A stretch of DNA of 45,201 nt from the sequence record NC_073088. One strand, given 5' to 3'. This document shows, in pieces, positions 33,190 to 35,571 of this stretch. The notes under the pieces are model-generated. The model searched no databases, was not told the origin of the DNA, and saw only the letters and a list, made by a program, of their open reading frames with translations. Position 1 is the first letter of the stretch. The number at the start of each line of letters is the position of its first letter. The DNA comes from Escherichia phage PC2. Made by a program: the position numbers and the translations under genes.

Positions 33190-33259
33190 GATATAAGCCC
33201 TTTTGTTCATATGCGCCGACCATCGGCAACATAGGAGACGGCCCTGCCATCTAAGGGGG

Positions 33260-33268
33260 ATTATAACA
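33260..33268 (-). promoter_or_regulatory. Candidate extended -10 promoter (TGtTATAAT) for the packaging/structural operon
   Basis: Minus strand reads CCTGTTATAAT about 70 nt upstream of the small terminase ATG; no good -35, so an activator may be needed. Confidence 0.4.
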
Positions 33269-33306
33269 GGCACAAAAAAGCCCACCAAATCGGCAGGCTA
33301 TGCGGT

Positions 33307-33519
33307 TTAAACGTCGCGCCCGTAGTATCGGGTTAACATGCTTTGCACTTCGCGTATAGCGCCCTCTGTGTAGCGTATTTGCGACAGTATCTCGATTCGC
33401 TCATCCATCGACATACCGACTGCCGCTGCCGTTCGTTCGAATCGGCGCAAGCCTTCGAGTTGTTTGCGTAGTTCTTTCAGGCGGGTGGCCTGCGTGCTCA
33501 TGAATACTTGTCTGATCAT
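33307..33519 (-). CDS. Hypothetical small protein
   Basis: 70-aa ORF; ATGA overlap with the upstream metallophosphoesterase gene. Confidence 0.4.
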   Translation of the reverse strand: MIRQVFMSTQATRLKELRKQLEGLRRFERTAAAVGMSMDERIEILSQIRYTEGAIREVQSMLTRYYGRDV

Positions 33520-34658
33520 TTCAACATTTCCGGGCTAATGGTTAAGCGCGCTACTTCGCCGTAGTTGGCGCTGTAGGTAATGACGTTGGCACTGCGACCG
33601 CTCATCCAGCCGCCGCGGCTGGCGTAGGCGTCTTTCGCTGCTAGCGTCCTGTGCTGTTCGACAATCATGTTGCGAGACTCGACAATCTTCTGGTGGTGCA
33701 AATGGCCTACGTGCGCGTAGCTGTATTCGCTAGACCCGAATGCCTGTCTAAATTTAGCGATCATAACCTGCTCGATAACATCGAATCGCGCTTTGTGCCC
33801 GTGGTGGAAAAACAGCGTGGTCTTACCGTGCTGCACCATTTTGTAGACGTCCGGGGACGTGTCCACATCGACGCGCGGCTCGTTCTCATACAGGGTATTG
33901 AACATCTCAGCAAGCAAAATCATACCCGATTCGTCATGATTACCCTGGACTATTAGCAGTTTGACTTTGTGGTGTTTTTGCAGCGCCAGGTCTACCACGT
34001 TGCGCACCATGCGGATCATGTAGCGGACTAACTTCTGATATCGGGTGTCGGCGTCCAGTACGTGACCGCTTGCCGGGGTGACTGCATCCAGGCTATCAAA
34101 GTGGGCCATATCCCCGAGGATATTGATAACGGCAGTGCCTGCGTCCGGTGCGCGGGCGAAGGCTTCGACAAACCAGCGGTAGAACAGGTCTTCGGCAATC
34201 GCCATATCCCAGTCTTCGCCAGTCTCCTCACCCCATGCCAGCATTCCCAGGTGAAAGTCTGACACGGTGTACAGGTTGAGCAAGTCGAGCGCCTGGATCG
34301 GTACTGGCGGGGCGTTTACAGGCGCTGCCGGTGTGATTTCGCTGTTCATACCCTCGACAACAGCGCGCATAGCTTCGAGTTGGCGCTCCTTGTCCTGCTC
34401 AGTGATGACCCACGACATGACCTCTTCGCCATTTCCGCGCACCAGGGCCGATACGCGCTTAACCCCAAAACCATCGGCAACGCGCTTACGGATCACGGCA
34501 TCATTGCCGTGACCAATTCCCTTTTTCGACAGGCGGGCTTTGCGCATATAGACATTGCGCATGGCAATCCCGTATTTCTTCGCAATCTCTTTAACCGTAG
34601 TCCCTGCCTGAATTTCTGCGATCAATTGCTCATCGGTAATTTTAGTTTGCGGGTGCAT
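33516..34658 (-). CDS. Helix-turn-helix domain fused to a calcineurin-like metallophosphoesterase
   Basis: 380 aa; N-terminal HTH (TVKEIAKKYGIAMRNVYMRKARL); phosphoesterase motifs VSDFHLG, GDMAHFD, VQGNHDE, HHGH, GHLHH. Confidence 0.7.
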   Translation of the reverse strand: MHPQTKITDEQLIAEIQAGTTVKEIAKKYGIAMRNVYMRKARLSKKGIGHGNDAVIRKRVADGFGVKRVSALVRGNGEEVMSWVITEQDKERQLEAMRAVVEGMNSEITPAAPVNAPPVPIQALDLLNLYTVSDFHLGMLAWGEETGEDWDMAIAEDLFYRWFVEAFARAPDAGTAVINILGDMAHFDSLDAVTPASGHVLDADTRYQKLVRYMIRMVRNVVDLALQKHHKVKLLIVQGNHDESGMILLAEMFNTLYENEPRVDVDTSPDVYKMVQHGKTTLFFHHGHKARFDVIEQVMIAKFRQAFGSSEYSYAHVGHLHHQKIVESRNMIVEQHRTLAAKDAYASRGGWMSGRSANVITYSANYGEVARLTISPEMLK

Positions 34659-34680
34659 ATTTAATTAATTCCTGATTAGT

Positions 34681-34706
34681 GGACCGTGGACAATATACCA
34701 CGGTCC
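34681..34706 (-). promoter_or_regulatory. Perfect 9-bp inverted repeat (GGACCGTGG-N8-CCACGGTCC) in the leader of the HTH-phosphoesterase gene
   Basis: Read directly; lies between a 26-aa hydrophobic mini-ORF (34720-34800) and the ATG at 34658. Confidence 0.4.
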
Positions 34707-34829
34707 GTATGGCGGCGGGCTATATCAATTCGCAAATAACCATGCCGATAAAAGCCGCGGTGGTCCAGATCGCTAATACCCAAATATCATTACGTGCCAT
34801 CTTGATTACTCCTCTCGTTGATTGGTCGC

Positions 34830-34859
34830 AGTATGGCGTCTATGTTGGTTGCGAGTCAA
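34830..34859 (-). promoter_or_regulatory. Candidate sigma70-type promoter (TTGACT-N18-CATACT) for the mini-ORF / HTH-phosphoesterase operon
   Basis: Minus-strand hexamers read directly; immediately downstream of the terminator at 34868-34895. Confidence 0.35.
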
Positions 34860-34867
34860 GCAATAAA

Positions 34868-34895
34868 AAGCCCGGAATTAACCGGGCTTAATTGT
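34868..34895 (-). terminator. Intrinsic terminator closing the lysis operon (hairpin flanked by T-rich tracts on both strands)
   Basis: GCCCGG-AATTAA-CCGGGC; minus strand continues TTTTTATTG, plus strand continues TTAATTGTTT. Confidence 0.7.
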
Positions 34896-35063
34896 TTACG
34901 CTGCGGGGCCGGATTCCGTCTGCGGTGGTGGGCTTGGCAGCTTCGCATCGAAGACGCCTGCATGGCTGATAGTGTCCGCGATGATAGCGCGTGCGCCGGG
35001 GTCTTCGGTTTTAGCCAGCGCGGCGAGCGCGTCGGCGTTATGATCAAGAATGCTTTTTAACAT
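34896..35063 (-). CDS. Small ORF between endolysin and terminator
   Basis: 55 aa (MLKSILDHNADALAALAKTEDPGARAIIADTISHAGVFDAKLPSPPPQTESGPAA); RBS GAGG about 9 nt upstream; not in the ORF track (<60 aa). Confidence 0.3.
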   Translation of the reverse strand: MLKSILDHNADALAALAKTEDPGARAIIADTISHAGVFDAKLPSPPPQTESGPAA

Positions 35064-35079
35064 ACTGTGTTACCTCGTA

Positions 35080-35571
35080 TTATGCAGCGTTACGCCCGAT
35101 CTTCTCGGCAACGTCCCACTGCTTACCATCAAACAACGCCTGTCTGCCGATTGCACGGCGTACCAGACCCTTAAGCACTTCCCCGCCTTGCTTGCGGAAC
35201 TGCGGCAGAGTAGCACGGACCTTCGCCCAGTCGCCCAGTCGCACCGCATCATCGAAATCATTCGCGATGTTATCCGGTACGATCGGACCTTGACCGGCAT
35301 TGATTACCAGGTCCACCAGCGCGTCGAATTGCGCCTGGTTAATGCTCGGATGTGCGTATTTGTTCACCCAGTCCTCGGCATACGCCACATCTCGCTTGAG
35401 CAGTTCCAGCGCTTCCGCACGGGTAATGCTTCGAGGCGGGTTAGTGCCGGTATGACCATAACCCCAGGTGTACAGGCCGCGGGCCTGCTCTTTCTTAGTC
35501 GCGAAATACGGCACTGGGCTGAAAGTCTCCCATGCTGCCGTAAATCGTAGACCGTTATCACTGAATCGCAT
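35080..35571 (-). CDS. Endolysin, T4 lysozyme-like (GH24 family)
   Basis: 163 aa; motif GLRFTAAWETF...YTWGYGHTG parallels T4 lysozyme [21 protein letters not shown]; directly after the holin-like genes. Confidence 0.85.
   Translation of the reverse strand: MRFSDNGLRFTAAWETFSPVPYFATKKEQARGLYTWGYGHTGTNPPRSITRAEALELLKRDVAYAEDWVNKYAHPSINQAQFDALVDLVINAGQGPIVPDNIANDFDDAVRLGDWAKVRATLPQFRKQGGEVLKGLVRRAIGRQALFDGKQWDVAEKIGRNAA

Follow-up and report, generated by a model that had tools for sequence, protein, structure and literature searches.

The junction between the lysis and packaging genes of this phage is an ordinary combination of an accessory gene and a promoter, and not a leader-peptide attenuator. 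In the arrangement that we propose, and hold with about as much doubt as confidence, the variable lysis/packaging junction would consist of an intrinsic terminator, a moron-like cassette with a promoter (P1), a resident promoter (P2) and a 27-nt leader carrying a Shine-Dalgarno (SD) sequence, with the arms of a perfect inverted repeat around P2 forming a stem on RNA that starts at P1. The features are listed in Table 1.

Table 1. Features at the lysis/packaging junction, in the order in which they would be transcribed.
Feature	Coordinates	Strand	Remarks
Endolysin gene	35571-35080	-	
55-codon ORF	35063-34896	-	
Intrinsic terminator	34862..34889 (stem 34889-34868 plus T-run)	-	stem AAGCCCGG/CCGGGCTT
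P1, sigma-70-like promoter (predicted)	34830..34859	-	TTGACT-18-CATACT; consensus match, 9/12
Mini-ORF Shine-Dalgarno GAGAGGAG	34816-34809	-	8 nt 5' of ATG
Mini-ORF, 26 codons	34800-34720	-	product MARNDIWVLAIWTTAAFIGMVICELI; one hydrophobic segment of membrane-spanning type
Perfect 9-bp inverted repeat	34706-34681	-	GGACCGTGG-N8-CCACGGTCC; GC-rich arms flank the P2 -10
P2, extended -10 element TGGTATATT (candidate)	34692..34700	-	TG 34700-34699, hexamer TATATT 34697-34692
P2 transcription start (predicted)	34683..34687 (~34685)	-	~7 nt past the -10 hexamer, inside the right arm; standard sigma-70 geometry
Shine-Dalgarno AGGA of the phosphoesterase gene	34670..34673	-	11 nt 5' of ATG, outside the hairpin
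HTH-phosphoesterase gene, 380 residues	33516..34658	-	N-terminal HTH and calcineurin-like phosphoesterase domain

Genomic Setting of the Junction

The window (the whole stretch of DNA analyzed, 45,201 nt) is the genome of a Dhillonvirus, a siphophage of E. coli, and the feature lies on its minus strand. The 701-nt stretch around the feature is 98% identical to the corresponding sequences of Escherichia phages PEC14, PEC9 and HK1; matches were found in 160 phage records, nearly all from Dhillonvirus. In the literature searched, no transcript, transcription-start or protein data were found for any Dhillonvirus; the papers on Ksap1 and anti-Tmn deal with other loci.

On the minus strand the genes run in the order holin, endolysin, a 55-codon ORF, the junction, the HTH-phosphoesterase gene, a 70-codon gene, terS and terL. 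The phosphoesterase gene heads the packaging/structural cluster, with terS and terL coming after it, and the gene order thus places the junction at the boundary of the lysis cassette and this cluster. The encoded protein belongs to phrog_704 ('DNA repair exonuclease', E 6e-160), and its matches to Metallophos_2, Metallophos and GerE are all under the Pfam cut-offs. The SD of the gene is unpaired in predicted folds.

Two elements 5' of the mini-ORF, an intrinsic terminator and the sigma-70-like promoter P1, were passed over in silence by the initial annotation of this DNA. The terminator has a stem of 8 pairs, 6 of them GC, followed by the tail TTTATTGCTT (terminator scan), is kept in all related loci, and is predicted to close the lysis-cassette transcript. 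When positions 34300-35200 were scanned against Rfam at E values up to 10, no family fell on the repeat, and the sub-threshold hits (Trp_leader, rimP, RyhB and others) could be dismissed, as all of them lay on the hairpin of this upstream terminator (34862-34913).

Sequences Compared

The junction was collected from 45 Dhillonvirus loci, and the 28 distinct sequences among them were aligned in register. The loci came from three sources: IMG/VR contigs retrieved with the phosphoesterase protein, 20 GenBank phages picked across the identity range, and 10 metagenome contigs retrieved by searching for a degenerate pattern based on the 5' end of the phosphoesterase gene, a selection that is therefore unbiased as to the repeat. 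A wider set comprised 55 loci of more distant phages with a homologous phosphoesterase (41–76% identity).

A Probable Small Gene Between Terminator and Repeat

The 26-residue hydrophobic ORF with a strong ribosome-binding site (RBS) that had been described for this locus is present (mini-ORF, Table 1). It does look translated and under selection, and the substitution pattern makes it very likely a real, unannotated gene that evolves as a protein. Computed over 20 distinct alleles with all six frames compared, pN/pS is 0.16 in the mini-ORF frame, the lowest of the six (0.34–4.3 in the other five); this frame is without stop codons across the alleles while the other five contain stops, and its variable sites are distributed 6/5/14 over the three codon positions, a third-position bias. 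Nearly all relatives have an RBS of the GGAG type in front of the ORF. With another gene upstream, the RBS is GGAG in one case (L013) and a weaker GAG in another (L008).

The product begins with a charged N-terminus (MARND or MARKD), followed by a hydrophobic stretch of 19 residues (mean Kyte-Doolittle hydropathy 1.88 over residues 6-24), and is predicted to be a single-pass membrane protein. The 26-residue protein had no match in Pfam, PHROG or NCBIfam. A tblastn search of phage genomes matched it in about 109 phage records, all Dhillonvirus (~109 of the 160 Dhillonvirus records), and in most of these no feature is annotated at its position.

Two overlapping ORFs were judged spurious, as both contain stops in relatives and have no PHROG hit. 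The first, of 70 codons on the plus strand (34679-34891; pN/pS 0.34), is apparently the same as the shorter 'hypothetical protein JL1_4' of PEC14, an equation that we make by position; the second, of 35 codons on the minus strand (34783-34676; pN/pS 0.92), is annotated in McMelon and 101114BS4.

A Variable Cassette with a Candidate Promoter of Its Own

P1 is kept as TTGACT-N18-[CT]ATACT in the relatives that carry the mini-ORF, and the consensus match suggests that it is the promoter of a cassette made up of P1, the strong RBS and the mini-ORF. This cassette lies between conserved genes and is present in some and absent from others of a set of otherwise collinear relatives. Deletion has occurred independently at three or more junctions (the L007 type, L010 and L088/L100), and there are also truncations (L012/L085 and L091) and insertions next to it. 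The mini-ORF is missing altogether in at least 12 loci, with the downstream gene unchanged, and has been truncated by deletions in Sodalis phage SO-1 and in L091. The -10 element of P1 is lost in L071, and in Maverick it is taken out by a 23-nt deletion between direct repeats. In six loci (L003, L005, L073, L076, L084 and L093), unrelated 57-codon genes have been inserted between the mini-ORF and the repeat, which shifts the mini-ORF 175 nt from the repeat; with such a gene 3' of it, the mini-ORF gains a tail of 2–3 residues that overlaps the start of that gene. A gene of 70–75 codons (phrog_16851) precedes the mini-ORF in L008, L013 and L080. The mini-ORF had been proposed to encode a leader peptide, a view that does not survive this comparison: it behaves as an independent small gene, which is deleted, truncated or separated from the repeat in relatives.

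In relatives at ~75% phosphoesterase identity, the same slot is occupied by a gene for a 63-residue Imm_superinfect protein (PF14373, E 9e-14; phrog_1039), which the PHROG database classes as 'moron'. Its promoter, TTGCAC-17-TACTAT, was read by eye from the sequences and is not a scan result. Phage morons are autonomous promoter-gene-terminator cassettes situated between conserved genes, for example the lambdoid morons and HK97 gp15. The mini-ORF cassette resembles them in its own sigma-70-type promoter, its strong RBS, its presence/absence polymorphism, its position at a gene-cluster boundary, and in sharing its slot with the gene so classed. The simplest reading would be that it is a moron-like accessory module encoding a membrane microprotein. 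It differs from morons in that a 26-codon gene is far smaller than is typical, and in the matter of a terminator of its own: 13 nt 3' of the stop codon there is a stable hairpin, but without the U-run that a true moron terminator would have, and a resident promoter lies within it. The phage carrying the cassette is, we presume, virulent, so that there would be no lysogen to benefit, unlike the situation with morons.

The mini-ORF product is short and hydrophobic, like small phage inner-membrane proteins such as T4 Imm and the PF14373 protein, and is encoded directly 5' of the phosphoesterase gene; by analogy with the superinfection-immunity protein that holds the same slot in relatives it probably acts at the inner membrane. 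The resemblance is positional only, as the product has no sequence similarity to PF14373, and a protein of 26 residues with one helix stands against one of 63 residues.

A Conserved Extended -10 Element in the Loop of the Repeat

The loop of the inverted repeat is likely to be a promoter of the phosphoesterase-terminase genes (P2), to judge from its sequence and its conservation. A TGn motif lies directly 5' of a -10 hexamer that has A as its second and T as its sixth base, the core is 36 nt 5' of the phosphoesterase ATG, and the only TGNTATATT in the window is this element. No recognizable -35 element was found for P2. Extended -10 (TGn) sigma-70 promoters are known in E. coli and in phages, galP1 being one example. 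P2 is like promoters of this type in having a TG one base 5' of TATATT (A at -11, T at -7) and no usable -35. It is placed ~36 nt before the first gene after a terminator, is invariant, and has a second copy of its layout before terS; the GC-rich dyad that brackets the candidate -10 is not a general feature of the class.

Columns C11, T14, G15 and T17-G23, with the reading TG.TATATTG, do not vary across the 28 distinct sequences (45 loci), and the flanks do. The invariance is thus in the loop and not in the stem. A fixed loop with a variable stem is the opposite of the pattern due from a structural RNA hairpin.

The 7 distinct sequences that lack P1 and the mini-ORF bear on this point. All keep the core, with the terminator followed within ~30 nt by TGATATATT or TGGTATATT, and in these phages nothing else from the terminator to the ATG resembles a promoter; in phage Envy, for example, the gap from terminator to core contains no canonical -35/-10 promoter. 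Phage phiEco273 likewise lacks P1. Their hairpin is down to -2.9 to -5.5 kcal/mol, with the exception of L088, a recent deletion, where it is still -12.5 kcal/mol. Since the core is retained where the stem has been lost, it must be conserved independently of any hairpin, and this excludes a protein-recognized RNA loop of the boxB type.

The same layout is seen at terS, where a terminator is followed at once by TGTTATAAT or TGATATAAT, and it is conserved. Most of the wider relatives (41–76% identity) have a hexamer resembling a -10 (TAGTAT, TACTAT, TAGAAT, TGGTTAAAT, TGCTAATCT and TGATAGAGT) at an equal distance, in many cases with TGn, and in one group of distant relatives the hexamer is TTAAAT, without the usual A at -11. 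No conserved repeat was found among these wider relatives.

The Inverted Repeat

A perfect inverted repeat with an 8-nt loop, able to form a stable hairpin, had been reported here, and on both counts the report is correct. The predicted energy of the hairpin is -17.3 kcal/mol alone and -18.8 kcal/mol in a 37-nt context, and in the 184-nt leader its pairs have probabilities of ~1.0, so that it dominates the predicted ensemble; beyond this one hairpin the leader is unremarkable (whole-leader fold z-score 0.09). The reported layout is also right, with each spacing one nucleotide shorter than first given: 13 nt instead of 14 nt from the mini-ORF stop to the repeat (34719-34707), and 22 nt instead of 23 nt from the repeat to the phosphoesterase ATG at 34658 (34680-34659).

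The window contains the exact 26-nt palindrome only once, and none of 100 shuffles produced it. Perfect repeats with arms of 9 bp or more and loops of 3–12 nt occur at 7 loci in the window, compared to a mean of 2.4 in first-order Markov shuffles. As repeats of this class are not rare, the repeat alone proves little, and the comparative evidence is the informative part.

One view of these counts is that the arms have no dedicated function, and are a lineage accident of GC-rich flanks around an AT-rich -10, kept by recent descent. Chance alone would give ~2.4 perfect 9-bp repeats of this class in each genome, and only some relatives have the repeat in perfect form. Pair 10-31 or pair 14-27 is missing in half of the sequences, all four bases occur in column 27, and the wider relatives do not have the repeat. 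We nevertheless consider such an accident unlikely. In the 28 distinct sequences, 76% of stem cells are paired, which is above all 500 column shuffles and all slid controls (32–51%), and extra outer pairs at columns 7/34 are seen in two forms, T-A and G-C. The outer arms GGACCG and CGGTCC are nearly fixed in the 18 distinct cassette-bearing sequences, amid non-coding positions that vary, and the right arm is variable exactly where the left arm and P1 are gone.

Transcription Attenuation

Leader-peptide transcription attenuators are well known from the trp, his, thr, pheA and pyrBI operons. The initial annotation saw the layout of such an attenuator in this junction, and in that scheme translation of the mini-ORF would control the hairpin, which would then terminate or permit transcription into the phosphoesterase gene. 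We regard this as highly improbable, and the junction is almost certainly not an attenuator. The likeness lies in the order of a short ORF, a stable GC-rich hairpin 13 nt after its end, and the next gene. There is also a possible alternative pairing: if the right arm is made unavailable, about half of the sequences allow the left arm to base-pair with nucleotides 41-47 of the mini-ORF. However, the hairpin is more stable than this pairing by 9–15 kcal/mol, and uncompensated synonymous changes abolish the latter. Constrained folding of 30 distinct leaders found no conserved antiterminator partner; the partner shifts between relatives.

The remaining hallmarks of the known systems are missing as well. 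The stem is followed by ACUAAUCAGG, with 2 U in the first 8 nt, and was not flagged by the terminator scan; a hairpin without a U-run would be a poor terminator. No run of regulatory codons is found in the peptide, whose conserved character is that of a hydrophobic helix, although an arrest motif within it is conceivable. A whole extra gene splits the ORF from the hairpin in 6 loci, and in at least 12 the ORF is absent with the downstream gene unchanged. It is the loop and not the stem that is conserved, the hairpin takes in neither the SD nor the AUG of the phosphoesterase gene, and no Rfam family matches the element. What stands of the attenuator layout is the short ORF under selection (pN/pS 0.16, as above); the U-run, a conserved alternative hairpin, regulatory codons and a fixed linkage of ORF to hairpin are all lacking. 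Attenuation of transcription that depends on translation is not a function of the repeat.

Possible Roles of the Repeat Arms

The arms follow the cassette. They are paired in 88% of cells in the 18 distinct cassette-bearing sequences and in 59% in the 7 distinct sequences without P1, which have three different deletion junctions and represent only about three lineages. Taken with a level of pairing above that of the shuffles, this speaks for a function connected with P1 and the cassette, but the link between arms and cassette could also reflect shared ancestry or recombination. Our preferred reading, in which we have low confidence, is that the arms may act as an RNA stem in transcripts that read through from P1. 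It is weakened by the lack of compensatory changes. Covariation in the repeat is weak. Of the 10 pairs, 5 show changes in one partner alone, and half of the sequences have mismatches at 10-31 and 14-27. In cassette-bearing phages the arms are simply kept, and where they vary, at columns 27 and 31, pairing is broken without compensation. Conservation of the arms in this manner fits sequence-specific protein binding as well as RNA structure. Two loci (L089 and L090) have a different palindrome with a shifted centre, GCGGTC-N13-GACCGC, and in these P1 is so near that transcription from it would probably begin within the left arm; the presence of a palindrome there argues for a role at the DNA level, as an operator or roadblock.

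An operator had been offered as the fallback to attenuation, and it survives because the repeat straddles the conserved extended -10 element. Palindromic operators that overlap a -10 are known, such as LexA boxes and the Arc/Mnt operators of phage P22, and the repeat is like them in being a perfect dyad centered on the -10/start region of a probable promoter. A dimeric DNA-binding protein of the phage or the host, possibly the HTH domain of the downstream phosphoesterase itself, would bind the palindrome over the -10 and start of P2, so that the packaging genes are repressed and/or read-through from P1 is blocked until the right time. This is a doubtful proposition, for which the position of the dyad can be cited, together with arm sequences that are conserved in cassette-bearing phages without compensatory changes, the palindrome kept in L089/L090 although P1 transcripts probably exclude the left arm, and the weak LuxR/GerE-type HTH match of the downstream gene. 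Palindromes at the corresponding promoter position are also seen in some distant relatives, e.g., TAAATAAGA-N4-TCTTATTTA in L048, but these are not conserved within their own groups.

Several observations count against an operator. There is one full site in the genome, no further copy of the repeat or its half-site was found there, and half-site matches are below chance expectation. The half-sites differ or decay among relatives in which the HTH, including the putative recognition helix, is essentially the same, and their centers are unusually far apart (~17–21 bp) for operators of this kind. In L089/L090 the palindrome differs in sequence as well as in the position of its center. Phages without P1 dispense with the repeat and keep P2, which is unexpected if the repeat is the switch of P2. 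Autoregulation by the downstream HTH was weakened by a comparison of the first 70 residues with the repeat type over 44 loci, in which no co-variation was seen, and a resemblance to LexA or CRP sites, judged by eye only, was set aside as neither spacing nor half-sites fit.

Proposed Organization and Significance

Returning to the RNA-stem reading of the arms, the proposed junction would work as follows. The intrinsic terminator would stop the upstream (lysis-cassette) transcript, and P1 would drive the accessory, moron-like cassette with its gene for a 26-residue single-pass membrane protein. P2, a -35-independent extended -10 promoter (TGGTATATT) with its hexamer filling the loop of the repeat, would start transcription of the phosphoesterase-terminase genes, on an RNA carrying a 27-nt leader with the phosphoesterase SD. 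As the predicted start of P2 is inside the right arm, P2 transcripts would be without the left arm and could not form the hairpin. Transcripts from P1 that read across P2 would fold a stable stem-loop just 3' of the small gene or genes, which may mark or stabilize the 3' end of the cassette transcript, or may slow read-through and so partially insulate the cassette from the packaging genes.

A more elaborate possibility, which we think distinctly unlikely, is that the palindrome-wrapped P2 is a two-level switch and that the microprotein is a new superinfection-exclusion or anti-defense factor. If this were true, the same 26 bp would be P2 on DNA and a stem-loop, or a repressor/roadblock site, in P1-derived RNA, and would decide the entry of early, cassette-driven transcription into the packaging operon of a virulent siphophage. 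Independently of this, the microprotein would be an exclusion or anti-defense factor that is conserved across over 100 Dhillonviruses and that annotation has overlooked.

No general principle is changed by these findings. An attenuator, which would have been more unusual in a phage late operon, is unsupported, and the locus adds to known kinds, namely an extended -10 promoter and a moron-like gene for a small membrane protein. For the Dhillonviruses, which serve in phage-defense and phage-therapy studies, the results are more concrete. A new conserved membrane protein of 26–29 residues would be added to their gene complement, one left unannotated in most of the ~109 records that carry it; in several records, ORFs that are not conserved, in a different frame or on the opposite strand, are annotated there instead. 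A probable promoter has been located for the phosphoesterase-terminase genes, with a matching candidate in front of terS, which may be useful in Dhillonvirus engineering. The junction itself is a hot spot for the swapping of small accessory genes, and these are candidates for exclusion or anti-defense functions.

Accessory Genes at the Lysis/Phosphoesterase Junction

The junction between the lysis cassette and the phosphoesterase gene is a hot spot of small accessory genes (see table). Two unrelated 57-codon ORFs, MSFKPRRDS...AEFKQQDAE and MAELIRLMARDEH..., are found among the compared loci (L-numbers) between the 26-codon gene for a predicted membrane protein (mini-ORF) and the 9-bp inverted repeat, and an ORF of 70-75 codons (phrog_16851) occurs on the other side of the mini-ORF; none of these has a known function. 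In the GenBank record of phage WF5505 (L084), a 'putative transcriptional terminator' predicted by ARNOLD (-13.2 kcal/mol, locus 746-763) is annotated where the inserted 57-codon gene ends, overlapping the repeat's left arm, and its hairpin (CCGCGG.../...CCGTGG) is distinct from that of the PC2 window.

Phages with about 75% phosphoesterase identity (L015-L056 and others) carry in the equivalent slot a gene for a 63-residue Imm_superinfect (PF14373) membrane protein, with a putative promoter of its own read from the sequence (TTGCAC-17-TACTAT); in sister genomes this slot is occupied by a different, larger gene.

Positions of features at the junction and in neighboring regions (negative values are relative to the phosphoesterase ATG)
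Feature	Position	Strand	Context	Loci or records
57-codon ORF	about -238 to -64		inserted	L003, L005, L073, L076, L093
57-codon ORF	-221 to -47		inserted	L084
70-75-codon ORF (phrog_16851)	-361 to -131		5' of mini-ORF	L008, L013, L080
Imm_superinfect gene (PF14373)	about 250 nt upstream of the phosphoesterase ATG			L015-L056 and others
Palindrome GCGGTC-N13-GACCGC	within -50 to -20		surrounds same P2 -10	L089, L090
70-codon ORF	34679-34891	plus	overlaps mini-ORF	
35-codon ORF	34676-34783	minus	other frame than mini-ORF	annotated in McMelon, 101114BS4
55-codon ORF (phrog_11068)	34896-35063	minus	3' of endolysin	
Terminator-like hairpin with T-run (GCCTGCCGATTTGGTGGGCTTTTTT)	within 33255-33310	minus	3' of the 70-codon gene that follows the phosphoesterase gene	
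Perfect extended -10 element TGTTATAAT	33268-33260	minus	directly after hairpin, just 5' of terS	

Truncation and Loss of the Cassette

In L012/L085 (Sodalis phage SO-1; -97 to -1), 45 nt have been deleted, so that codons 1-14 of the mini-ORF run directly into the repeat region. This creates a 31-codon ORF that crosses the repeat, stops 1 nt short of the phosphoesterase ATG and is probably a pseudogenised copy of the mini-ORF. Phage Maverick (L071) carries a 23-nt deletion at about -183 to -160, lying between two direct repeats (GCAACCAA and GCGACCAA); it takes out the -10 of the putative upstream promoter P1 and leaves the RBS and mini-ORF intact. The mini-ORF is absent from ZCEC11 and SM_S22 (L089, L090), which retain a P1-like promoter at a distance of 13 nt upstream from the hexamer of P2, the putative phosphoesterase-terminase promoter; their palindrome differs from that of the window, with half-sites oriented oppositely to GGACC...GGTCC.

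Gene Annotation and Public Records

Public records usually leave the real 26-codon gene without annotation, whereas two ORFs overlapping it have been annotated. The opposite-strand ORF of the PEC14 record, 'hypothetical protein JL1_4', likely corresponds, as matched by position only, to the 70-codon plus-strand ORF. Neither this ORF (pN/pS 0.34) nor the 35-codon minus-strand ORF (pN/pS 0.92) was accepted as a gene, as both lack a coding signature and a PHROG match and are interrupted by stop codons in relatives.

A mislabelled host or contamination is suggested for 'Acinetobacter phage NJ01' (OQ221563), listed among the similarity matches, as it shows 95% identity to E. coli Dhillonviruses across this region, and PQ843332 (P-GXEC-L2P5), at 88.6 kb and with three places matching this region, suggests a concatenated assembly.

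Neighboring Regions

Judged from sequence, the region upstream of terS repeats the layout seen at the mini-ORF and repeat, with a predicted terminator followed by a putative extended -10. The pair is kept in relatives, with TGATATAAT in L014/L099.

On the endolysin side, the 55-codon ORF of the window corresponds to the N-terminal part of a protein of 133-135 residues in other Dhillonviruses (L002, L004, L014, L089, L090), where its annotation is 'structural protein with Ig domain' or 'major tail protein'. The short and long forms have the first ~45 residues in common, which points to gain or loss of a C-terminal Ig-like module at this site.
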